Source of the DNA: Balamuthia mandrillaris
Lineage: Eukaryota
NCBI GenBank assembly: GCA_031835245.2
Contig: JAVKOQ020000054.1
Location: 62,001 to 126,000, forward strand
Direction: 5' to 3'
Length of the DNA stretch: 64,000 nt
Shown in pieces: positions 696-64,000 of this stretch. The number at the start of each line of letters is the position of its first letter. Positions within the stretch are counted from its first letter, which is position 1. The notes under the pieces were generated by a model, which did not search any database, was not told the origin of the DNA, and saw only the letters and a list, made by a program, of their open reading frames with translations. A program made the translations under genes and the position numbers.

Positions 696-1149
696 CTTCC
701 TTCCTTTAACCTGGGTTAATAATAATATTTGAAGCGCACCTAGTAAAAGCAAAGCACGGCTGATGAACGGCTACATAGCCCGTTCTTTCTTTCTTTTTTT
801 TTTTGTTTAAGGGGTTGGCATCAAGGAAGGGGGAAGCCAAACCTTCTCTCTCTTTGGTTGGTTTTTGCCGGGGTTAGCGCAGAGGGCAGGGGCGTTACAC
901 GCAGCGGAGAGGGATTGTCGACGGTGGGGGTCGAACCCGTAATCACCTTATTAGGATAGTTTCTTAAACCATTCCCCGCTTTGGAAATTTCACCTCCTCA
1001 TAGTGTCCTAGGATAAGCGCTACAGTGGTAATATAACAGCGATGCAATAAACAGGGCGGCACCTTCTTTTTGTTTTATTTTGTTGGTGCACGGAAGAAGC
1101 AGGGTTAGACTCAAAGGGAACAGAACACAACAGCACAACAACACAGGCA

Positions 1150-3871
1150 ATGAGCACACCGTTGGTATGTCCCACAGACCGCAAGAAATACGCGGTGAGG
1201 AGACTGCTGACCGACCTCAAGGAGTTGCAGCAACAGAGCCACGGCTCATGGAACCAAACGCACCTCATCAGCGCTTTGCCTCTGGACAACAACATTTTCT
1301 GCTGGCACGTCAACATTCGCTCCTCACCTCCGCTCCGCAGCCACAAGGAGGAGGAGGAGGTTGTCTATCATCTTCGTATTTGCTTTCCTGAAACCTATCC
1401 GTTGGACCCTCCCAACATTTTCACCTTCACGCCCATCCCTCACCCGCAAGTGTTCGGCTCTCGCGTTTGTTTGGGCCTTTTGGAGAAGGGAGGAGACCCT
1501 TTTGCCCCTCCGGAACAGAGAGAGTACAGCGGATGGTCGTCCGGCTACTCTGTTCTCTCCATCTTGATCCAGCTGAGCTGCTTCCTGACCGACTCGGAAG
1601 GAGCCTGCCCCTCCAAGAGCGTTCGAGAGGAGGCGATGAGCTTTCGGTGCAAGACGTGTCCTCATCATCCTTCCTTCGGACGTATATGGCCGCCTTTCAA
1701 CCACAACACTGTCGTCAACGACGAGACAAGTTTGAGGAATGGAGCAGCGGGTTCGGGGTTGACGAAAAAGAAGATGACGACGATAGCGGAGAGTCTTAAA
1801 ATACAAATGTTGAAAGCCGGTTTTGTGAAGCAAGGTGCAGAGAGCCAAGCAAAGGAGACAACCAGACACTTTCACCCGAATGGTGAAATGAGGAAGAACA
1901 GAAGAAGGCGGCGAAGAGGAAAACAGCCACCCAAAGGAACGAACGAAACGGAAGAAAGTCGTACCAAAACCGAACAACCAGAAGACGGACACAGAGGAGA
2001 AGAAGAAGAACCGCAGGAGCAACAAGAAGACACATCAGATTTGGAAAGACTTCCAGAAGAGTTGCTGCTGCACATCATCCGGTTTTGCCTTTCCGAAAGA
2101 CGCTCTCTGCCGACTCTCAGTTTAGTCTCTCGGCGTTGGAATCGGCTTTGCAAAGATAAGCTCGTTTGGCTCACTCTCTCTCAACTATACTTCCCCAAAG
2201 AGATGCTTCAACGTTGCGGCACCTCCGAGTTGACGCAGCGCTTCCGTCAAGGCATGGAGTGCATCAAAGAGGGTTTGCGTTGCTTCTACACTAAGCTTCA
2301 CGTGGATGATGAACACGCAGAAGAGGACGAAGAAGCGAAGAAAGGTGTGGTATTGGGAATGCCCCTTAACATCGAGTTGGGAGTGAACAGGCATCACAAC
2401 TGGAGCTTCATCAGCCAGATATCTTGCATCACTGAGTTGCTCTCCGCTCATGCTTTTTACTGTATGTCTTTTCCTCTTGCCTTCTGTGCTTGCTTGCTTT
2501 CCCTTCTTCCTCTTTCTCTCTCTTCCGCTTTCTCTGACCACCCTGTTCTCAAAGATGAGGGAGTTAGAAAGACGGCGTGGAAGAAACCTTTTCAATACTG
2601 GATACCAGTGTACATCTCTGCTGCCCATTGGCAAAAAGCAAGACCTTATTGGAGGCACGCCGTGCAGAGCATTACCGAAGCTCCCCGTTACAATCCGATG
2701 TTAGCTTTGGAAGTGCTGCCAAAGCTGATGAGCACCATGACTGTTCAGCTCATGACCGGAGAGACCTTTGCTTCGTTTCGCGCGTTAGAAGGTATTTGCA
2801 TCCATCGTATCTTCTGTACTCTTCATTCTACTGACGAAGATATCCACAGGTTACTGTAGTTTCCACCGATTGTTTTTGGAGATCGTAACCAACGACTCGC
2901 CAGAACTTCAAGAGAAAATCTCAGCTATCATCGACGACTTCATCTCCTCCTCCAACGGAAGAACGAAACGCGCAGTTCCTTCTTTGGGAGAGTTTCTCCC
3001 GCTTCTCTCCGTTAGCGACCGTTACACCTGGGAGCACGTGAAAGAGGCTTATCTGGACGAGAGCTTCGATCGGCACGCCAAATGGATCCTCCAAAAGTAT
3101 CCGCACTTGGAAGTGTTTGAAGGATTCGAAGAAGAGGAACTGGGGGAGAGATTGGAGCAAAGCTTCGAAGCTGTTCAAGTCGGAGCGAGATTGCTTCTCT
3201 TCAACGTCTACTTCTTAACCAAGTTTACAACTTCCAAAACAAACGTGCAAAGCAAAAAAGCTAAGGAGAGAAGAACAGAAGAGGAACCTTTTGCACAAGC
3301 ATTGGAAGAGGCCAAAAGAGAGTATGACGCTTTCTATGGAGCTTCCACACCGAGACAACAGGAGGAGCTGCAGCAAGAAGTAAGAAATATTGGCAAAGTG
3401 AGCGATTGGAAGGCTTTCTTCGAGTACTTGGGGATGGAGGTGCCGAGTCGAGAAAGAATGTGCTTCATCCTTAAGCAAGCGGTCGTGGAGTCGGAGAGAA
3501 AGTTTTATCATCAGCCTTCGATACAACGAGACGTTGAGGAAGTAGAGTTTTACAGACGAAGAAGTGCTTTAGAAATAGAAAGAGAAAGAAGAGAAAGAGA
3601 AAGAGAGGCAAGAGAAGCAAGAGAATGGGCACTAATACGAGAAAAAACAAAAGCAAGAGCACAAGAAGAAAGAAAAAGTCGCTATTCAGCAACTTCGAGA
3701 GATGAAGTTGGAAGCTGGAGATGCACACGAGAATCAAGAGGTTATCAACAACAACCACAACAACAACAAGCAAGAAGCTTCGCACAAAGACCTTCATCAT
3801 CATCGTCATCGTCGTCATCACCCAGAACTTGGGAAAGTATGGGAAATTGGAGAAGAGAAAGAAGAGACTGA
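1150..3871 (+). CDS. Ubiquitin-conjugating (E2/UBC) domain plus F-box protein with a C-terminal helical region, spliced
   Basis: UBC motifs RRLLTDLKEL, WHVNI, FPETYPLDPP and HPQVFGSRVCLGLL. F-box LERLPEELLLHIIRF..LSLVSRRWNRLCKDKLVW. GT-AG introns at about 2462-2553 and 2792-2849 join ORFs 1150..2859 and 2870..3871. Confidence 0.8.
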
Positions 3872-38998: not shown

Positions 38999-40163
38999 TC
39001 GCTCTCTCTTTTTCTCTCATTCATTCTGACTAATGAGCATATACCAGGTGTTGGGCTCATTTGGTGACAACGAGTTTCTTCCGGAATTGATGCATCGAGC
39101 CAATCGCCTCTTTGCCAAAAGCGATGGTTCTGCTATAACAATCCCGAGTTGGTGGGCTACGTACGTGGCTCCCATACATAGTCCTTCTCTCTACGATACC
39201 GTGATCCAGCAAGCTAAGCGACTGGCAACTACCTACAAGCAAAGAGCAAGGAATATGGGACGAAAACAGCCACCAACCAAGAAACAAAAGAGCAGACACG
39301 GCAATGAAGTAGAGAATGCTGTACAAGCGCAGGAACAGCATGAAGAAGAAAGAGATAAGCGATGCACCAGTGAAAGAGAAGAAGAGGAGAGTGAAGAGAA
39401 AGTAAAAGAGGAAGAGGAGGCGATACACAAAAGATTGCAACGATTCTACGTGACGGCATTACCACCAGATGCATATTTTCTGGCCCAGCCGAAGATGCTT
39501 TACTCTTTTGATTGCACCGTCACTCCACAAACAACCTATGCTGGTTCTGTGGCCTTTTCTATCGATTCTTCTTCTTCATTGCCATCATGCCATCACCACA
39601 GCAATGGCGAATTGGTAGTGCATGGGTTTGTTGGCTACTTTCGTTGCGGCTTATTTGAAGACCTGCACATAGACTCTATTCAGGGTTCTTCTACTCAAAA
39701 TACCTACCACTGGGAAAGCTTTTTCTTTCCTCTTGTCCAACCCATTCCTTTCCCTTCTGTGAAAGACAGAGAAGGCAATGACTCTTCTTCCCCACCGTAC
39801 AAGACACAACTAACAACAATCCAACTTCAGCTGTTCCGACAGACAGAACATCTTCCACAGTCACCATTCTTGCAACGGTCATCTTCCTCTTCCACCTTCT
39901 CTTCCGCTGCAGCATCGAACATAGAGAAAGAGCCACAAAAGGAGAAGGAGAGGGAGTACAATGAAGAGGAGAAAGAAGAGTTGGTGGTAAGAAGGATGGC
40001 TGTGTGGTACGAGTGGCAAGTATCTCACCGCAGTGGCAACGTGGTGACGAGCAACACTATTCTGCACAACATGGTTAGCTACTCTTTCAGATCGCTTTAC
40101 AAAACAGTATTCTTATTCTTATTGCAACAAAAGGGAGGAAAGCACCACTGTTTGTACTTGTAA
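37985..40163 (+). CDS. PRMT5-like protein arginine methyltransferase (catalytic Rossmann fold and beta-barrel only)
   Basis: YEAMERDRGKY, VLGPGLGRL, ALEANP, DIIVAE-VLGSFGDNEFLPE (double-E loop), IPSWWATYVAPI, VHGFVGYF, HWESFFFPL, VWYEW, LHNMGGK. Multi-exon; the start is uncertain. Confidence 0.85.
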
Positions 40164-40250: not shown

Positions 40251-42399
<2,149 letters not shown>

Positions 42400-42528: not shown

Positions 42529-43397
42529 ATGGAGAAAGAGGCAGAGGGCAAGAGAGAGAAGCACCAGAATCAACAGCAAGAGGTCTATGAAGAGGATGAG
42601 GCCTTTGTCTTCGAGATAGTGACCGCCTCCAACTTCAAGGAGACGGGAGAGGCATGGGCACGCATTAACTCCACTGCGGAACCAGCCGCTTTGCACGTAA
42701 TACGCACCCTCTCGTTACCTCCCCTAACGTTCTCAACTCTGTTGTTGCGCTCCAACAGTTGGGTTTAACCTATGAGCAACACTTGGCGGCATGGCCAGAG
42801 GCCTTCGCGGCCATCCCCAAGCAAGGCCTCTCCCTGGTGGCCAGGGACAAACAGTCCGGCCGTTTGGTGGCCTTCCGCCTCGCCGTGGACCTTCACAGCG
42901 AGTCCGGGCTGCAACACTGGCTCGTGTCAACCTTGCTGCTGGGGGGCATGGCCAAAGGCTTCCGCCTGGCCCACATGCTTTGCCCTGAAACCCTGAAACC
43001 CGCTGCCGCCATGCCCTGGCTCATCAACCTTACCGTAAGCAAGTGGCGGGAAGCAACCGCCCAGAACAACAACGCAAGGAGCGCCCTCGGCCCCTCCCAG
43101 GTCCTTCACATGTATGGGGTGGGGGTGGAGGACGGGTTCACGGGGAAAGGCCTGGCCACCAGGATAACGGGGTTGACGGAGAGGCTGGCCAGGGAGAAAG
43201 GGTTTCGGTTGTCCCTGGTGGCCTGCAGCAACGCCATCTCGGCCCATGTCTTCGCCAACAAGCTGGGCTATGCGGAGCGGGCCAGGGTTTGCTACGACGA
43301 GCTGGTGTTCAACGGGGAGCACGTCTTTGGCGGCATGATGAACCGCCGGAAAGACGGCCAGGAGAGGTACATGATAGTGATGGACAAGGAGTTGTGA
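42529..43397 (+). CDS. GNAT-family N-acetyltransferase (arylalkylamine-NAT-like)
   Basis: GLSLVARDKQSGRLVAF, VGVEDGFTGKGLATRI (motif A), CSNAISAHVF-KLGY. Intron 42697-42758 is in frame. Confidence 0.85.
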
Positions 43398-43970: not shown

Positions 43971-44285
43971 ATGGCGGCAGAAGCGGAGCAGGTCGTGCTC
44001 AGCAAGAGACAGGCCTTTGAGGGTTTGGCCAAGAACTTGGTTGCCACCAAGGATGACGGTACTGCTGCTCCTCTCCACTGTTGACGGATGGTTCAGAACG
44101 TTCGTTCTGGGCTTCTCTCCCATGGAACTGAAATAACATGCTTTTGTGGGCCGATCATACCTGCAGAGAACATGAAAGCGTTTCTGTTTTCCTACCATCA
44201 TTTTTTACCGGAGGACACTGACCTGTTTCAGGTGTGGATGGCTCAATATCCTTTCCTTGCTTTGTTCTCTATCCCTCTCCTGGCT

Positions 44286-44327
<42 letters not shown>

Positions 44328-45516
44328 GGCTTTCTCTTTAACGAAGCAACGTTCGAGCTGGCATGTGCCAACGAACAACAAGGCAACAAAAAATACAGCG
44401 TGGACAGGTTGGTTGTTTTCCGTCTGCTCTCGCAGAACCTTGCTGACCTACCTCGTTGTTATGTGGTTCTTCTGCAGAATGCTCGAATTCCTGAAAATGT
44501 GGTGGGACATGCACCCAGATGACTTCACCAGAGCTAACGTTAACTTGCTGCTTACCGCTATCAAAGCGCGTCGCCCCGAAGCATTGAACCACTTCAAACT
44601 CTTGTTTCTCAAGCCCTCCAATGGCAGCAATGGTGGAAGCACTCCCAAACTAAACCCACAGCGCTCCAGAGACCACTTCTCCTATGCCATACCTACAGAA
44701 GCATGCTCGTCTTCTCCACATCCAGAGAAGGAAGAAGCAAGCGATGGCACTAACGTTAGATTGAAGAGATGTTCCTTTGCATCCCAACTGAGAGGAGCGG
44801 AAAAACGAGCAGCGGGTACATCAGCGACAAGGGACTTTTTGGAGGTGAGCAGCAGCCAGTTGGCCAGAGAGATGACCATGCTGGACTTTGAGTTGTTCAA
44901 CAAGGTGCAGTGCAAGGAGTTCCTTCATCACGTATGGCACTTCTCTTCTCGTCATGTCTTGGCTCCCAACATCACTGCTTACATCGCTCGCTTCAACGAG
45001 GTAACCTCCTCCGTTTCACTTTTCATGTTTCTTGACATCTTGCGGTCCAGTAACTTACAAAGCAAGACGACCAAAGGTGAGCTACTGGGTGGTGACAGAG
45101 ATACTGATGACCCGAAGAAAGGAGCAAGCCATGGTGCTGCGGAAGTTCATTCGCCTGGCCAATGGGTTTCTTCACCTAAATAACTTCAATGGAATGATAA
45201 TGATTATGTCAGCCCTCAACAACAGCACCATTGTTCGCCTCAAAGACGCTTGGGCGGTGCGTTTCATCCATCCCCTCATCCAACCGCAGCCTTTGGAGGA
45301 ATATTACTTTATTTATGGTTGTGATTGCCTTTCTGTGGAAGGTGAACTTATTTGCTTGCTTGATGAAATAGGGGCTTGGAGAGAAAGAGATGGCCACATT
45401 CCGAAATCTGGAAGAATTGCTGTGCAACCAACAAAACTTCAGTAACTACTTTCAGGAGTTCAAGAAACGTCCCTTCCCCAAAGTTCCTTACTTTGGTTCG
45501 TCTCTCTCTCTTTCTC

Positions 45517-45550
<34 letters not shown>

Positions 45551-48500
45551 CTTTTTTCACGTTTTGTTCATCTGCCATGGTGGCGGTTAACTAACCACAA
45601 CAATGGAACAGCATTGTTTTTGAGGGACTGCACATTCATCAACGACGGGAACAAGCCATACAACCGACATGGGATGATTAACTTTGAATTCATGACCATG
45701 CTTTATCAATGCCTTTCTGCAGTGAGAGACTGTCAGCGCCATCCCTATGACCTACTTCGCCACAAGGATATCCAATCCTTTCTTTGTTGTCTGCAGTTTA
45801 TCGACGATGAGGTCTCTCTCTCTCTCTTTTCTTGCTTCCGCGAAGACATACTTACTCATTACACGTTCAATAGGATGCATTGTATTTGTTGTCATTGAAG
45901 GCTCAGCCAGGTCTTTGGACTAACGAAGCAGTCAGGTTCTTATCTTATTTATATCTGTTTCTATGTATATAATGACACCAACGATGTAGAGATGTGGCCA
46001 AAGAAGAGCGAGGCTCCAGCGACCGCTTATCTTATGACGGTCCCGTGACTACGTCCTCCAACATGGGAGATGCTACTAATGAAGACCTCACGCTCGATAG
46101 TTACTCTGAAGATGAAGCTTACGAGAAAGCCCAAGCGCGCGATATTGTTGGGGCGAAGGAGGCAACAGTGGGAAAAAAGAGAAGAAAGCAAAGAAAAAAG
46201 CTGGTGCTGGACACAGAAGCACTGACAAAAGAAAAGATGGTGCTTCGCACGGTGAAAGAGGTGCCTGCAGCATTGGTGCCCATGCTGTTAAAAGCAGAAC
46301 AGGTGGTAGACCAGTATTACAGCAATTGTGTTCGCTCTGTCCTTGATGGTCCGTTCTCTCTCTCCAAACTTTTGTTATTGTGTCTTTGGATGTTTTATTG
46401 ACATACGTTTTGTTTCCACAACAGGGACGATCAACATACACCTCAAGAATTGGATGAAGAATGGGGACGGGGCTGATGACGGTAACGAGAGGTTGATATT
46501 GTTGCGAGCCACAGCCATGTCAGTGGACTTCTTCACCAGCCTGCGAGAGAACTTTGGGTTCTTTGGCCTTGCCAAGAAGCAACTGCAAACTGTGGCTCAA
46601 ACCCATCAAGCTCAAGCCATGCTCACTGGCTTTGGCTTTGGTTCTGCTAGTCCTTCTTCAAGCAACGCGGCTGGAGGAGGGGCCGAAAGCGGGAAGCGAG
46701 AAGGCTCCTTTGCAGAGGAAGAGAGTGTGTTTCAAGATTACACGGAAGAAGTCTCGGCCAAAATGCTCTACGACTTTGGCTATCTGACAGCGATGGGGGA
46801 CTGCAAGGCCTTCTCCAAGTTCACAGGTGCAACTGGGCTCGAGCTTTGGTCGATGGGTCCCATATTGTGCAACTACTCTGGCCAATCCAAGGCCAAACTG
46901 AAGAGTCAGGACGACGAGAGTGGGCTGAACCCAGAGGACCCTTATTCCTTGGCAGAGCTGATCTTTTGCTTCGAGTCAGAGTCGTGGCTGCGACGCAAGC
47001 TTCCTCTGCCTAAGATGAATCCTGTCCTCTTCCCCAAAGGTAAAGCCAAACACACGTCTGTTTGCCATTCCACCTGTGGATACATAGCAGGATGGAGCAC
47101 AGCGGCGTTGGGCAAGGAGATTGCTAGTGTGGAGCCACTTTGCAGAGCAAGAGGGGATCCCATTTGCACGTTTGTGCTGGCCTTGCCTAGTCGCTTGAAC
47201 CACTACCTCCGATTCTTCTACCACCGCAACAACCTCCCTGACATGAGCCACCAGGTGCTCAAGTACAACGTGTTGGACACCAAGGAAGCCTTTGCCTTCT
47301 CCACCAAGGCCATCTTGGCTGGAGACCAAGTTGCTGCTGCACCTTCCAGCTCTTCAGCATCATTGCCCTCCTTATCTCCAGTGGTGAGCAAGGACAAAAA
47401 GAAAATGATGGCGGTGAAGTTCCCGGTGGTGGGAAGGAAGAGACTGCCAGGCAAGCTTGAATCCAAATTAGACAATGCGGAGCTGGTTTCCACCACCACC
47501 AGAGAGGACCTGGCCCAGCAAGAGGACATCAAAGCCAAACAACATGCCATCTTTGAACAGTTGTTCAGCAAGTTCGTTTGCGATCCATTGAACGGGGAGG
47601 TGAGCTTGGAGGGGAAGGAGAAGTACATTTTCATGCGAGCGGAGACCCTCTCCACAGGGTTCTATCAGGTCATCTCCTCGCTCATGACCCAGCGAGAAGA
47701 ACAGCAGAAGCATCGCCACGAAGAGGAAGGAGTTGCGGTGGTGGCGCGTTCCTTTGCCACAAACTTTCTGTATGATCTCGGCCGCTGCTTTGCTCACAGT
47801 GATTTCGCCTTCTTCAAACACGTTATCCCTTCTCAGAGACTAGCGTATGTACACCTCCTTTTCCCCCCCCCCCTCTGCTTCTGTCTACACATGCTAACAG
47901 TACGCTATTTGCAGGTCAAAAGAAGAGCAGTGGTTGCAGCAGGTATTCTCCTTGCCTGAGATCCTGAGGAATGTAGGGTGGGGCAAGCTCACCGTTGCCT
48001 CTTCTTTGTCCATCTTGAACTTTGATCCCAAGAACCACTTCAAGCACTTTCTTCTCAGGTTTCTCCTCTATCCTCTCCTATCTTGTTCATTCCTCCTCCG
48101 CTTCCTCCTGTGTAGTGAGAGCCATTGACAAGCGTGTGCGGACAGGTATACCGTGAAAGACAGCTTCGAAGCAGCAGCCTACCTCAAAGACCAGTGGACC
48201 AAAGCCAAGCACCAATACGACGCCCAACAACAATCCTCCAACAAAGGCAAGAGCAACGGATTGAAGCAGCTGCGCGTGCAACACGTACAGCATTCTCCCG
48301 TGTGCATCCTCAACTGTGGTTTTGTCAACTGCTTCTTGGAGGAATGCATTCATGAGTTGTCTTCCTCCTCCTCATCCACCAAGAAAAGCAAGGAGGAAGG
48401 AAGTGGAGAAGAGGGAAGAGTGCAACTGGGAACAGTGGAGGTGAGTTGTGTGGCATGTGGACATGAGAGATGCGAGTTCCTGGTGGCTCCAGCGGAGCTA

Positions 48501-48635
48501 ATGTTCGCCCACGTGATGAGGTACCTGAAAGAGAACGGGAGGGAGGGGGAGGTGAGCTGGCTGCGAGGCTTGGAGATCGTGATGAGGAGGTTCAAGGACG
48601 GGAGGGGCTATTTCTCTCGACTATTTCGCAAGTGA
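43971..48635 (+). CDS. RasGEF (REM plus CDC25) fused to tandem XylR-N/V4R sensor modules
   Basis: REM: KAFLFSYHHF..RMLEFLKMWWDMHPDDF. CDC25: LAREMTMLDFELF, RFNE-VSYWV, LNNFNG, PKVPYF, FLRDCTFINDGN, INFE. V4R: CHSTCGYIAGW..VEPLCRARGDPICTF and CILNCGFVNCF..VEVSCVACGHERCEF. Further 5' exons are possible. Confidence 0.85.
44246..44350 (+). other. U12-type AT-AC intron in the RasGEF REM domain
   Basis: 5' ATATCCTTT, internal (CT)n tract, branch-like TCTTTAAC 8 nt before the terminal AC. Removal gives VWMAQ-FELACANEQ in frame. Confidence 0.8.
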
Positions 48636-49240: not shown

Positions 49241-50203
49241 TTATTGCTGACTATCACCACCACCATTTTGCTGGGGATGTCTGCTTCCAGCTGCTCCGCC
49301 TTGCTGGCCGCTGCTAATGGCTTCTTTGCTGCTGTTTTGCTGTTGGCTGTACTGCTCCTCCGCGTCGCGGATGAGGTCTTCGTCCTCAGCCTCAGTGGCG
49401 GCCTCCGCAAAGGCGACAAGGTCCTCCTGGAACTCTCTCTCCAGCTGGGCCTCGATTTCCCGCTCGATCATGGAATTGATCTCGTCCTCAACGGCCAAGT
49501 CCGCTTCCACCAACTGCCTGATCTCCTCGGACATGGAGGTAGGCCCCGTGTAGCCGGAGGAGGGATGCCCGTAGAGGTGGGGTTGGAGGTAGCTCAAACC
49601 CATCAAATGTTGGTTGTAATCGTCGGGTCCACCATGCGCGGGAACAGGAGCGTAGGGGTTGTAAGCCATGCCACCGCCACCCATGTAGAGGCCGCCGACG
49701 TCATCGCTTCCCATAGCGGCAGCAGCGTGGGAGTAACGGCAATGCTCTCCAAAACGACACCGACCCTGAGCAAAGTAGCGACAGGGTATGCTGCTTTCAA
49801 AGGAGGAGGAGGAGGAGGAAGCGGCAGAGGTAGAAGAGGAAGAAGCAGAGGCGGTGGCCGAATGGCTAAACCGACAGTCATCTCCAAACTTGCAGCTGCC
49901 TTGCGCAAAGTAACGGCATGGAGGGGCCTCAGAACCGTAGCCTGAGTAGTCGCCTCCACCGCCACCAGAAGAGTAAGGGGAGTAGGAGGAATAGGAGGAA
50001 GAAGAGGAAGAGTCGTGGTGATGGGGGGAATAGGTGGAACTGCCCGCGGCAAGGATTGCCTGATCTTGGAATACCTCGTAGGAGGAGGAGGATTGGTGAT
50101 AATTGTGTGGTGCGGTTGCTTGTGCGTAGCTGACGTGGTGAGGAGGTTGCTGGCCTCCGTCCTCGGACCTCGAACCCGAGGGCGTTCCTTGTGGTGGATT
50201 CAT
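49241..50203 (-). CDS. Tandem CCCH zinc-finger protein
   Basis: CRYFAQGSCKFGDDCRFSH and CRYFAQGRCRFGEHCRYSH (C-x7-C-x5-C-x3-H), with an acidic coiled tail. Confidence 0.85.
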   Translation of the reverse strand: MNPPQGTPSGSRSEDGGQQPPHHVSYAQATAPHNYHQSSSSYEVFQDQAILAAGSSTYSPHHHDSSSSSSYSSYSPYSSGGGGGDYSGYGSEAPPCRYFAQGSCKFGDDCRFSHSATASASSSSTSAASSSSSSFESSIPCRYFAQGRCRFGEHCRYSHAAAAMGSDDVGGLYMGGGGMAYNPYAPVPAHGGPDDYNQHLMGLSYLQPHLYGHPSSGYTGPTSMSEEIRQLVEADLAVEDEINSMIEREIEAQLEREFQEDLVAFAEAATEAEDEDLIRDAEEQYSQQQNSSKEAISSGQQGGAAGSRHPQQNGGGDSQQ

Positions 50204-51332
50204 AACTGTGAGGCATTTTGCAAAATCATCAGTGAGTGAGTGAACTCAACATTTGTTTTTTTTTCGCAATCAAAGTCGCTATCAAAATCACACTGATATA
50301 TTGTACCTTTCTATTTACTTGTTTTCAAAAGAGAAAAAGTGAACACGCACTCCAAACTAAAAAAAAAAAGACCCTTTCCGATCAACAAAAAAAAGGGGGG
50401 TGGGGTGGTGGAGGGGCGTGCTAGTTTCTTGCCCTCCGCGGTGAAGTGTGTGCAGCGGGGTTGGGTGTGTTCTTTTTGACGTAAAAGAAAATAACGGGCC
50501 TGCGCTTGGGCGTAAGGGGAGGGTTTTTAGGTGGTCGCGGGTTGCCAGCTGACGGCAGGGTGTTGAAGAGAAATGAAGCGGTCCTCTTCATGCTCTGTTT
50601 TTCCGTAGAAAAGAGGACATTCGGCTGTCCCTATTCCCCCTCCCCTGAATGCCGGCAATAGCTCACCCGTTGATTTTGTGTCGACTCACCCAACCCCTGA
50701 TGGAGACGGAGAGCAAAAGGAAGAATGCCTCGGGGGCGCTCTTCCCTCGTGCAACGATGTCGTAGTCTGCGTCAGCACAGGTAAAAGAGAACCACATCGC
50801 TATGGGTGCACTTCGCAAGAGGCCAGAGATTTCCTGTCCGGAATGGCCGTGCCTGCTACTACCGGAAGTAAGAAACACGAGTGGAGACCCCAAGAATACA
50901 GGCAAGCCCATTGGAGTTGGAACTCTCTGAGGATTGGTCACCACCACCCCCAGCACCGCAGGGATTTGAAGCTTGGTGAGAGGACCACGCTACCACCACG
51001 TCGTCTCGGCGGACCGCTCTGCGAAGCAACCAGATGTGCGGTAGACGCAGGTTGCGCTGCGAGTAATCCTTTTATGAGGAAAGGGGTTCAAAAGGGGGGT
51101 TGTCCTCGTCCCTACATTTTCCTAATCGCATCAATCGTGTCCTTTCGCGGACATACCGGCACTCTCTTAGATCAAAAGTTACTAACAAAGCACGCCGTTA
51201 CACACCAGTGTCAGCGGCAGGTAAGCAAACACGAACCCTTTTGTCAAGACAGCAAAAAGTTTCCCATACGCAATAGTACTCCCGTAGCTACCCCTGCCCT
51301 GGGCTGCACTGTTTTACTACTACGCTTGGAGG

Positions 51333-52788
51333 ATGACCAAAGTGATGCAAGCCTCCCCAGCCCACTTACCCCTTCGCCTGGAAGAGGTGGAAGACGGAGA
51401 TGAATCAAGCAGCTCCACAACTACGAGTTCCTGGTCCAGACAAGCCTCTCAGTTTTCGCTCGGCGCATGGACCGACAGCTCCTCCGGACCCGAATGTGAT
51501 ACTCCACGCCTTCCTGCGCACCTTCTAGAACTGTCGATGGAAATGACCAACTCTTTTTTTCTCAACTGTATATTGCGTGACGAGAGAGCAAGAGGCGTTT
51601 TCCTAAGCTTCCTCGAAAAGAGGCACTGCGAAGGTCAGTTTTTCTCCGTTCTCTATTTGTCTGTCTCTGTGTTGGCTAACAGGGCTGTAACACACTTCTA
51701 TCAGAAAACCTAATATTCTGGATGGAGGCCGAAGTTTACAGAAAGGTTAAAGAGCATGGCCAAAGAAAAATAAAGGCTGAGGAGATGGTGGAACAATTCA
51801 TAAGGGAAGGTGCAAGACATGAGATCAATATCAGCGCTGTTAGAAAGCAAGAGATAATCCAAAATATGGAAGAATCACCTTCGTGCCTATTTTCCAACTC
51901 GCAGAAGGATATCTTCCTTTTGATGGTGCACGGAACCTTCGACTTCTTTCTTCGAAGCCAACGATACAAGCAATACAAACGTATGTATTGCATTGCTTTG
52001 AAAGGTGAACTTCGAACTGATAATTGCTCCTCCTAAACTGCTCAGGACAAGAAGGCAAGTATGAAGGAGAATTGAGGCAAAAAGAGCTGCTCAAGGGACA
52101 AGCCAGCCCAAAGAGCAAGAAGCTGCCGAAGGAGAAGCAGAGCAAAGAGGAAGGAGGACACTCCCCCAAGGTGAAACAAAACAAGGTGAAACGGCTTTCC
52201 CGGCTTTGGAAGACGCGACATGAGAAAGCTTCCGACGAATTCGCATCTCCATCTTCCTCTCCAAACATGGATCGTCGGCGGAGCGGTTCGTCTTCTCAAC
52301 CAACGTTGCCTGGTAGCGAAATATCCCATCGTGAAGAAGACTCTACCAACATTCGTCTCGTCAACTCGTCGCCCTCTCTCTCTTCCTCTGCCGACATATT
52401 GCTGAATAGAATTGCTCGCCAAAAAACGGCTGCTGTGTTGGAAGAGGAGCAAGAAGATAAAGGGACTACCCTTCATGAAGACTTAGAGATGGGGAGCAGC
52501 ACGCCTCAGTCCGCCCGCAAGAACAAAGCCAAACGCCGAAACACAAAGAACAAAGAAAAAAAGCGCAAGGAAAGGAGAGAACGAAGGAGCGTGGGATTTG
52601 AACCTTACGCCAGCGGCACCATTACACACTCCAGCCAAGTAGACGTGCTTGTGGTTACGCCCACAACAAGGAATCGAGCAAGCAGTTGGATGCCCGCCGC
52701 TCAACCCTCCTCCTCACCCTCCACTGCTGAAGGAAGAAGACGAAGCAGCAGTGGGCTGGGAAGCAGGCCCACTGGACTTTTGCTTTAA
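51333..52788 (+). CDS. RGS (regulator of G-protein signalling) domain protein
   Basis: ILRDERARGVFLSFLEKRHCE-ENLIFWMEAEVY..FIREGARHEINIS..FSNSQKDIFLLMVHGTFDFFLRSQRY. Two introns; the 5' end is uncertain. Confidence 0.85.
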
Positions 52789-61498: not shown

Positions 61499-64000
61499 AT
61501 GGAAGCAATAGCATCCCGATCATCAAATACAAACCCTATCAAATCACAACAGACAAAACGCGTGGGTGCAGACGCAGCAGCCCACTTATCGGTTGGGGCA
61601 GCCATCACCTTCTACGAAACCTTTGAAGTCCAACAAGAAAAACTGGCAAAGCAGCAACAGCAACAGCAGGACGGGGTGGCTGCAATACAATCCGACATGA
61701 GCGAAGGAAAACGAATGCGAGCCAACGCCTTTTCTGTTGTGGAGGAGGAAGAGGAGGACGTAGGGCTGGGCGACAAAGCAGAAAACACGATGCACTTGAC
61801 GGAGCAGCTATTGCGAGAGCATGCCATCCAAGTGTGGATGCGAGAGGTACTGATGGAAGGTCCCTTTGATGAGCCTCAACACGTAGAGCCCTACAGCCTC
61901 ATACCTGATTTGAGGGATGGAATAAGGCTATGCAAACTGATGGAAACCTTGAAGCCTAAGTCCATTCCACGGATAAACACCGGCACGGTCTTTTTTCGCA
62001 ACAGAGAAAATATAAGCTTCTTCCTTGCTGCCTGCGAAGAATGGGGCGTTTCACGGTTCGACAGGTCAGTACAGCCACCTTGAGCCTTACTTGGGGAGAG
62101 AAGGAAAGAAAAAGATAGAGTGAAAGAGAAAGAGAGCGAGAGCGAGGAGGGCTGGAGGGAAGGAGAGCCTCTTCATTGCCCTTTATAAGGCTTACATTAC
62201 CCCTGACAACCATTTAAAGATTCAGGCTAGAAGACCTTTATGAAGATGAAAATTTTGGTGCCGTGGCGTAAGTGGACCTCTCCTCACACAGACATAACTT
62301 TGATATCTAATACTGCTTCTCTCACTGGAAAATAGAAACTGTCTGGAAAGGATTGGGGCCAAGGCCCACCGTGAACATAACTTCATCTTTAGCATTGCTC
62401 CAACGGAATATTACAAAACACTCGACCTAACATTTCCAAAAAGCAAAAAGCTTTGGATGACGCGCTGCTTGAGAAAAACCTTTTCGAAACGAAGAGCTAG
62501 TTTGGCTGGCTTCAAAATTTCCTTCCCACCAGGGCTGGATTTGAAACCTAATGGCTTTGCTAGCATGCGAGGTTCAAGCCCTGCTCAGAATAGCTTTCGC
62601 CATGCAGCATCTCCTTGTACATCTGGAGCAGCGGGTGCAGCCCATTCTCCTCAAACCGGACAGCGCCTTCTTAAATCGACGCTTCACAGTGATAAGCTCT
62701 TAGTGGAAGTCGCCTCGCACGGTGCTAGCAATGATAGACGTTTCCCTCAACATTATGAGCTTGAAACTTCCATAAAACGTATTGTGAAGGTACAGTGCCT
62801 ATGGCGGGGCAAGCTTGCACGCAAAGAGTACGCAAAGAAAGGTACGCCCGCAAAAAACTTCTCCGCATACGCATGAGCTCATGGAATCCAAACCCTCCAG
62901 TTCGAAGGGCCGCCTACCGTGAAAAAGTAGCAAGAGAAATACTGAGCACTGAAAAGACTTACGTGGAAATCTTGTCTAGGCTCATATGTTACTACTTACA
63001 GCCCATTGAAAACTTCCACAAAACAACTCTTCGTTTCGAGGGCATTTTAACTTTGATGAAGAATGCACGCATCATCTTCAGCTTTAACAGCGACTTGCTG
63101 CAATCATTAGATCCCCGCATCCAGGCCTGGTATCCTTGCCAGCAATTGGGTGACATATTTGTCCACGTGGTACATATCTCGACCATTTCCTGTGGAGGGA
63201 CTAGTCATGCAGATGTGCTAACCTTCTTTCCACCCGATTTTCCAACTCTAATGTACTGCATTGGTGGAATGCACAACAGGCGCAGTACCTGCGGCTCTAC
63301 ACGCAGTACGTTCGCGATTATGGACAGGCCCTGAACGACCTTCGAAATGCTAGAAGAGAATCCCCTGAGTTTGCGGAATGGGAAGAGGTGGGTTTTCTCA
63401 TTATTTTGTTTATTGCTTACTGTGGTTTTTTTCCCTCAAGAGAGGTCACCATCTTATTTGAATTATGCCTACGGGGTGTGCCTGCTGCCCCCGATATTTT
63501 GTTGTAATAGGGTATTAAAAACTTGGAAGAGGTAAAGGGGCAAGCCTTAACCACGTTGTTAATACAGCCCATTCAAAGAATCCCGAGGTACCTTCTGCTC
63601 CTGCAAGAGCTGCAGAAGCATACGGAAGAAGACCATGCAGACCATCAAGCCCTTCTCGAAGCGTTGCGGCTGATAACGGAAGTAGCTGCATTCATCGAGA
63701 AAAAGGCGGATGAGTCAGAGAACATAAGCAAAATGATCAGCATTCAGAGCAGATTGCAGGGCAAATACGTAAGTTTTAATCCGTTTTAATCTGTCCGTGG
63801 CTCTGTCCGTTTGTCTTTGTTTATATTGTGTTTCTGCTATGCTCCTGTTTTGTTCGTGTTCTTTGTTAATATCTTGGGGATGCCAAAACAGAGCGTGATA
63901 CAACCAGACAGGAAGCTAATAAAGGAGGGCTACATGGAGGTGTGGTCTAGGCGGAGTCGGAAGCAAAAGAAAAGGGTCATGTTTTTGTTCAACGATATTC
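61499..64000 (+). CDS. CH plus IQ plus DH-PH RhoGEF (runs off the right edge)
   Basis: CH: WMREVL..LRDGIRLCKLM..ENISFFLAACEEWGV. IQ: VKVQCLWRGKLARK. DH: EILSTEKTYV, LGDIF, LLIQPIQRIPRYLLLLQEL. PH start: RKLIKEGY..VMFLFNDI. Confidence 0.9.

Follow-up and report, generated by a model that had tools for sequence, protein, structure and literature searches.

The 64,000-nucleotide window analyzed here (positions 62,001 to 126,000 of contig JAVKOQ020000054.1, Balamuthia mandrillaris assembly GCA_031835245.2) carries on its forward strand a gene encoding a guanine nucleotide exchange factor (GEF) of the RasGEF type, followed by two V4R modules related to the sensor domains of XylR and DmpR. Its 12 exons splice into one open reading frame of 1241 amino acids (aa) with the sole stop codon at its end, and the surrounding DNA is eukaryotic, with short introns. 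The analysis confirmed that the gene is a single spliced, expressed fusion of RasGEF and two V4R modules. The features distinguished within it, in window coordinates, are the following:

43971..48635, + strand: whole gene; 12 exons, 1241 aa (open reading frame, RNA joints, deposited model P0001); from the N terminus, a REM-like region and CDC25, then an acidic/basic linker, the two V4R modules in tandem and a conserved basic tail
43971-44058, 44167-44245, 44351-44407 and 44478-45000, + strand: exons 1-4
45077-45256, 45372-45495, 45612-45811 and 45874-45935, + strand: exons 5-8
45990-46348, 46425-47844, 47915-48058 and 48146-48635, + strand: exons 9-12
43971..44610 (end approximate), + strand: REM-like region, from exon 1 to the start of exon 4; weak RasGEF_N match on a paralog, helical in the paralog model
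44246..44350, + strand: intron 2, AT-AC, presumably of the minor-spliceosome (U12) type, within the REM coding region
44833..45909, + strand: CDC25 (RasGEF) catalytic domain, exons 4-8, with the helical-hairpin motif at 45477-45652
45910..46245, + strand: linker of about 100 aa, acidic then basic, predicted to be disordered (predicted local distance difference test score, pLDDT, below 50 in the paralog model)
46349..46424, + strand: intron 9, GT-AG, 76 nt; spliced out to bring together the exon on the GEF side and the main sensor exon
46246..47300 (end approximate), + strand: XylR_N/V4R module 1, starting in exon 9
47063 (Cys), 47132 (Glu), 47141 (Cys) and 47165 (Cys), + strand: zinc-site codons of module 1
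46868 and 46958, + strand: pocket of module 1; Cys at the His position and Leu at the Trp position, respectively
47480..48530 (ends approximate), + strand: XylR_N/V4R module 2, exons 10-12; in its pocket, Leu at the His position and Val at the Trp position
48303 (Cys), 48438 (Glu), 48447 (Cys) and 48471 (Cys), + strand: zinc-site codons of module 2
48525..48635, + strand: basic, aromatic C terminus of 36 aa; conservation among the four paralogs is highest here (86%)

RNA evidence was drawn from raw sequencing runs of the same species, four of which (X1, X4, X5 and X6) were mapped to the gene. Joints were recovered for nine of the 11 introns (1, 2, 3, 4, 5, 7, 8, 9 and 11). Splicing of intron 9 is documented by four reads with four different starts in run X4, the shorter of the two flanks measuring 59 letters; in contigs of X2 and X3 this intron is retained. 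The first-pass annotation had asked for RNA support of a single transcript across 45900-46430; the joints of introns 8 and 9 lie in this interval. An X1 contig contains exon 9 and 17 loose letters that fit where exon 10 begins, which is not enough for a bridge. The sole support for intron 10 is a loose end of six reads matching the end of exon 10, while intron 6, which contains a skipped repeat, is absent from the joint list. An alternative donor of intron 8, at 45911, was ruled out by reads. The AT..AC boundaries of intron 2, with the donor ATATCCTTT, were seen as a joint in seven reads (X4 and X5); its U12 label follows the minor-spliceosome consensus.

The deposited B. mandrillaris protein P0001 (1216 aa) contains the same fusion and is 100% identical over the main sensor exon. 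It agrees with the 12-exon model except that exon 2 is skipped, with the consequence that part of the REM region is lost. Irregularities around intron 2/exon 2 are apparent in the models of P0003 and P0004, too. In exon 10, contigs of X2 and X3 (one other sample) miss one base at 46795, beside a short G run. Reads of X4 and X5 do not show this loss, which, if real, would shift the frame in module 1. Further single-contig gaps were noted at 47045 (X3) and 47658 (X1), and some X5 reads at 48015-48050 fit exon 11 in part and then continue with other letters; these are probably derived from a paralog.

The GEF half was identified by its match to Pfam RasGEF (E 3e-52, 177.6 bits against a cutoff of 23.1). 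The CDC25 domain aligns end to end with those of RalGPS1, RasGRF1 and Epac2, the hairpins being ungapped, and in the model of a paralog it superimposes on RasGRP2 with Z 28.8 and a root-mean-square deviation (rmsd) of 1.9 over 237 residues; the autoinhibited structures 2BYV and 4L9M were among the structure matches of this model. These comparisons show an intact CDC25 domain, which would catalyze nucleotide exchange on a Ras-family GTPase. RasGEF_N scored below the Pfam cutoff (E 0.007 on P0002, 0.004 on P0005 and 0.001 on P0006) and was not listed on P0001. The complete REM-CDC25 GEF claimed in the first-pass annotation is firm in its catalytic part (E 3e-52, aligned hairpin) and weakly detected in REM. 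“Rap guanine nucleotide exchange factor 4”, the name it bears in the database, reflects the CDC25 match only. Among 10 RasGEF homologs, the linker that follows the domain ranges from 62 to 192 aa.

All of the motifs on which the sensor assignment was originally based are present in the sequence. Pfam V4R (PF02830) matched two stretches at 36.5 bits (cutoff 31), while XylR_N remained below its cutoff (E 0.02). A profile built from 160 bacterial modules scored 124 bits with module 1 and 61 bits with module 2, compared with 7 bits for the best of 600 shuffles; the module 1 score is partly circular, because the bacterial set was found with this module. The two modules, previously described as homologous, are both V4R domains, but share only about 21% identity, and a direct BLAST comparison was marginal (E 0.004). 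The first of them begins at about 46246, in exon 9, and not at about 46330 as had been proposed. The Cys/Glu/Cys/Cys set, expected to form the zinc site of V4R domains, is complete in both modules, and in module 1 its residues align to C155/E178/C181/C189 of MopR. At the residue level, a zinc site is thus present in each module, with metal binding putative.

Residues 499-1216 of P0001 (718 residues) were modeled with AlphaFold2 from a 21-row alignment; the model reached a mean pLDDT of 75.6 and a predicted template modeling score (pTM) of 0.79, with 119 residues below pLDDT 50. The order of helices and strands is the same in both modules. Compared with known structures, as the first-pass annotation had recommended, the module 1 model matched PoxR (5frv; Z 17.2, rmsd 3.0, 195 aligned residues), MopR (Z 16.5) and DmpR (Z 16.2), in agreement with Foldseek; weaker matches were an archaeal V4R protein (Z 11.2), TRAPP subunits (about 10) and H-NOX (below 7). 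The fold match refers to module 1, whereas module 2 was assigned to V4R by its profile score (61 bits) and the shared order of elements. Both C-terminal modules are accordingly V4R domains, of predicted fold. The pTM of 0.79 suggests that they pack as a fixed internal pair. In DmpR, MopR and PoxR, the sensors form interlocked homodimers by which the output domain is restrained (PMC7264223). Given these homodimers and the high pTM of the tandem, a single-chain pseudo-dimer, imitating the interlocked homodimer of DmpR/MopR, is a natural prediction from the model. The C-terminal 36 aa are not conserved in distant homologs, and their very end has low pLDDT.

Three B. mandrillaris paralogs share 44-50% identity with the gene in the main sensor-exon region; two of them, P0002 and P0003, whose locus tags lie close together, are possible tandem copies. 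A search of representative sequences yielded 385 proteins at E <=0.001, of which 150 were taken; 30 of the listed relatives and then 7 (3 new) were scanned with Pfam, and the module count covered 190 proteins. Two modules were present in 22 of these. Ten are RasGEFs (four Balamuthia proteins, P0005, P0006, P0009, P0010, P0112 and P0019, the last with the source label EukProt), with CDC25 domains 30-80% identical to that of the gene studied. In four Ser/Thr/Tyr-type kinases (P0012, P0020, P0037 and P0094) the V4R pair lies behind the kinase domain, and in two proteins the tandem precedes a weakly PP2C-like C-terminal domain (P0043, E 0.012, below cutoff; P0013, similar by eye). The other six are V4R-only fragments. 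P0012 and P0020 share an N-terminal domain without a Pfam hit, and P0070, which has two partial modules, fell under the threshold of this count. The non-Balamuthia tandem proteins are called eukaryotic because of their RasGEF or kinase domains and their grouping in trees. The tandem is a mobile unit, found on RasGEFs, kinases and a PP2C-like output, and its retention on three unrelated outputs is as expected of a portable regulatory input. The RasGEF+V4R pairing noticed at first is thus part of a wider family, with 10 RasGEFs, and not a one-off.

Other relatives that were scanned or carried Pfam labels have a single N-terminal module and are mostly PAS-histidine kinases and GGDEF/EAL proteins; the N terminus is the usual place of an input domain. 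The bacterial relatives (best 80 of 579) belong to Deltaproteobacteria, Planctomycetota, Acidobacteriota, Bacteroidota, Nitrospirota and other groups, and the subfamily comprises, by estimate, about 680 stored stretches. A second module was found in none of 166 bacterial proteins, a count that is partly circular, as the sorting into bacteria was our own. A homolog search with alignment A2 (lengths 1146-3270) gave no match, which is weak evidence. Phage records contained two matches, both Acinetobacter regulators; no relative was found in viral contigs, with patterns taken from the whole of P0019 and hence weak, or among viral structures at E 0.001. In the Atlas, V4R/XylR_N clusters appeared at 0.85, a lead only.

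Two trees were computed, the first from 71 rows (39 eukaryote-type modules, 26 of 163 bacterial ones and 6 others) in an alignment fitted to the bacterial profile, and the second as a quick mixture-model tree of 45 rows, after removal of 26. XylR of pWW0 and L005 were left out owing to their short alignment. All 21 second modules form one branch in the 71-row tree (97/93), whatever their output domain, and they group together again in the 45-row tree (12/12, support 96), which fits one duplication before shuffling of the tandem. First modules fall into three groups, compatible with one origin. The eukaryote-type modules join the histidine-kinase subfamily, apart from XylR-type rows, with support of 100/99 and a long-branch warning. 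The modules are 32-35% identical to those of bacterial PAS-histidine kinases and GGDEF/EAL proteins and 18-27% identical to XylR; HHalign against the histidine-kinase subfamily gave 100%, E 1e-64 over 240 columns, including a shared N-terminal helix. The modules of P0019 are 45-50%, and at most 51%, identical to bacterial sensor modules and keep the pocket His. The kinship to XylR/DmpR originally proposed thus stands for fold and zinc site, but the nearest relatives are V4R modules of PAS-histidine kinases and GGDEF/EAL proteins. We infer that the module is bacterial in origin, was duplicated once and was then shuffled onto different outputs. Many transfers from bacteria have been reported for Acanthamoeba (PMC4053784).

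Pocket positions were assigned by alignment to XylR of pWW0. At the site of DmpR His100, module 1 has Cys and module 2 has Leu, so the replacement of the phenol-binding His, which the first-pass annotation had suspected, applies to both; the second phenol residue, Trp128, is also lost (Leu and Val, respectively), and the aromatic wall residue at 170 (Tyr176/Phe170) is Ser in module 1 and Thr in module 2. With all three lost, phenol recognition of the MopR type is not expected. XylR, in which the His is likewise replaced (by Tyr), senses toluene/xylene (PMC7264223). In the bacterial subfamily the pocket is near-invariant, with Phe at the His site in 163/163 and His at the Trp site in 161/163 modules; neither is kept in the two modules of this gene, and across the 39 eukaryote-type modules the pocket positions vary freely. 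Of 18 first modules, 17-18 retain the zinc-site residues, as do 19 of 21 second modules; the remaining two have alignment gaps there. Mean identity among the four paralogs is 51% for the core of module 1, 66% for module 2, 75% for CDC25 and 86% for the last 36 residues.

A stand-alone V4R relative is encoded on a Rhodococcus plasmid (L009:5995-6666) and has Phe at the pocket site, as in the histidine-kinase subfamily. Its cluster runs rubredoxin, GntR, V4R, sterol-binding domain, dioxygenase; this is the gene order of the nar naphthalene cluster, and the V4R gene is therefore probably NarR2. In that cluster, narR2 is described as a XylR-like putative regulator gene, transcribed in naphthalene-induced cells (PMC4591350, PMC5006600).

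We give an even chance to the proposal that the Ras-family exchange factor and its two V4R modules act as a one-component switch, controlled by a non-phenolic hydrophobic ligand of module 1. The ligand, small and hydrophobic, would bind module 1 and thereby change the shape of the module pair, and this change would alter the exchange activity or the membrane access of CDC25 across the flexible linker of 100 residues. Control might consist in release of inhibition or in membrane recruitment. Module 1 would be the specificity module, because its pocket differs between paralogs, with module 2 and the tail as its conserved partner. A prey or quorum metabolite, suggested in the first-pass annotation, is a possible candidate ligand. 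Somewhat more tentatively, the tandem proteins may represent a class of intracellular chemoreceptors of protists, in which a duplicated bacterial hydrocarbon-sensor fold sits on RasGEFs, kinases or phosphatase-like domains and paralogs read different ligands, with no membrane receptor involved; Ras and kinase signaling would then be under the control of small metabolites from microbes or the environment. Of the initial interpretation as a whole, the single gene, the V4R fold, the zinc residues and the loss of the His were borne out, while XylR had to be replaced as nearest kin.

Several points weigh against the one-component switch. In bacterial proteins the sensor precedes the output, whereas here it follows it, and a full-length model of P0004 (pTM 0.52, from a weak 10-row alignment) shows no confident arrangement of GEF and sensor. 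In MopR, H106A and W134A abolish downstream activation, the His and Trp starting the activating relay (PMC9556785); as both are lost here, this relay cannot be assumed. Relaxed constraint would explain the variable eukaryote-type pocket just as well as ligand diversification, and the high 3′ similarity of the paralogs could reflect gene conversion. In neither tree are the eukaryote-type modules nested inside the bacterial sample, so that it is their distribution only that points to transfer from bacteria. Ligand binding and regulation are putative in every family member, and NarR2 is itself a putative regulator.

It is possible, though in our view unlikely, that the tandem has ceased to sense diffusible signals and serves as a zinc-stabilized scaffold or membrane tether, perhaps holding a lipid as Bet3 does, and so brings the GEF or kinase to a membrane or a binding partner. 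The unconstrained pocket residues, beside fixed zinc and glycine positions, would be explained in this way, as would the homology of V4R to Bet3 (PMC2253512), with TRAPP subunits matched at Z of about 10. Conservation among the paralogs peaks in the basic, aromatic tail, but this tail is not kept in distant homologs; the long flexible linker would be suitable for tethering. Bet3, however, is not known to have this zinc site, and fold and sequence of the modules are much nearer to ligand sensors (Z 17 versus 10); P0019 is 45-50% identical to bacterial sensor modules, pocket His included.

Still less probable is that the zinc-cysteine site itself is the sensor, oxidation freeing the zinc or creating disulfides that switch the output, as proposed for archaeal MsvR. 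The three V4R cysteines of MsvR (C206, C232 and C240) have spacings of 26 and 8, the same as in module 1 (PMC3729527), no residues of the family vary less than the zinc-site cysteines, and extra cysteines lie nearby in the Balamuthia modules. The same site is nevertheless structural in MopR (PMC9556785) and equally invariant in XylR-type regulators (7/7), for which reason its conservation is no specific sign of redox sensing; judged by trees computed without MsvR, moreover, the modules probably descend from the histidine-kinase subfamily and not from MsvR. OrpR, considered as a V4R iron-sulfur precedent, was dropped, since its cluster sits in a PAS domain (PMC8359166).

That two adjoining genes, or an assembly chimera, were taken as one is very improbable and already largely refuted: no single read of runs X1, X4, X5 and X6 spans the distance from GEF to sensor, no read or RNA contig piece with at least 31 letters on each side joins CDC25 exons to exon 10, read depth is low and the one-base loss at 46795 recurs in contigs of one other sample, but RNA joints chain in frame from exon 7, among the last CDC25 exons, through exon 10, a contig from another sample runs unbroken over 45562-48300 with the introns in place, and nine further RasGEFs, at CDC25 identities of 30-80%, have the same fusion.

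Upstream of the gene, an open reading frame at 42669-43397 (+) matches GNAT acetyltransferases (E 6e-5), and a long CAA-type trinucleotide repeat tract at 41400-42050 has poly-Q, poly-N and poly-T frames. A PRMT5-like C-terminal domain (39030-40163, +), a CCCH zinc-finger open reading frame (49241-50245, -) and an RGS domain (51680-52036, +) are also encoded nearby; no link of these three neighbors to the RasGEF-V4R gene was seen.

In the literature covered (most subscription papers and the supplement of PMC4758236 lay outside its scope), we found no account of a RasGEF or eukaryotic kinase that carries a V4R module. The term V4R is absent from the main texts of PMC10471605, PMC4053784, PMC4758236, PMC6324907 and PMC11696275 and from the supplements of PMC4053784 and PMC10471605. 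Bet3 is treated as the eukaryotic V4R relative in PMC2253512, and the tandem on RasGEFs or kinases is unmentioned in the part of that paper considered here. The RasGEF+V4R pair is visible in precomputed Pfam labels; the parts and this pair are known, while the architecture and its spread are new.

If the proposed switch is real, a GEF controlled through a bacterial aromatic-sensor fold would connect chemicals outside the cell to Ras, a hub of amoeboid movement and feeding, with no receptor in between. Known examples of ligand-gated Ras/Rap GEFs respond to internal second messengers (cyclic AMP, diacylglycerol and calcium). Because the tandem also occurs on kinases and a phosphatase-like domain, eukaryotes may possess an overlooked sensory module, and with it a further use of the V4R fold in addition to TRAPP. 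The finding also draws attention to a large subfamily of bacterial sensors whose pocket is invariant and for which no ligand was found.

Among known systems, the A domains of XylR, DmpR, MopR and PoxR (PDB 5FRV, 5KBE, 7VQF and 6IY8) resemble the modules in fold (Z 16-17, module 1), in the Cys/Glu/Cys/Cys zinc site and, as the model predicts, probably in the paired arrangement of sensors. They differ in that here the phenol His and Trp are lost and the wall residue is Ser/Thr, two modules with long insertions are joined in one chain, and the sensor comes after the output. That output is a RasGEF, whereas theirs is an AAA+ sigma54 activator; neither AAA+ sigma54-activator nor DNA-binding domains were matched by Pfam at E up to 1. 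Closest in sequence are the modules of bacterial PAS-histidine kinases and GGDEF/EAL proteins, which share the N-terminal helix and motifs but are single and N-terminal, with a near-invariant pocket in place of the variable eukaryote-type one; no functional study of them was found.

MsvR, an archaeal V4R redox regulator, is alike in its three cysteines, compared by spacing alone, and differs in its helix-turn-helix output. Bet3/TRAPPC3 of TRAPP belongs to the same fold superfamily (Z about 10) and is part of a GTPase exchange complex, according to the title of 3CUE; its identity to the modules is 9-15%, its Z is much lower and Pfam gave no Bet3 match, whereas here a separate CDC25 domain would be the catalytic GEF and the modules group with bacterial sensors. 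In Epac, a ligand domain controls exchange in the same chain. By analogy, Epac/RapGEF4 and RasGRP, whose REM-CDC25 core is also present here with a putative REM, may share with this protein the control by a ligand domain within one chain. The Pfam scan of the protein revealed no cyclic nucleotide-binding, C1 or EF-hand domains; in their place, the regulatory part here would be the V4R pair.

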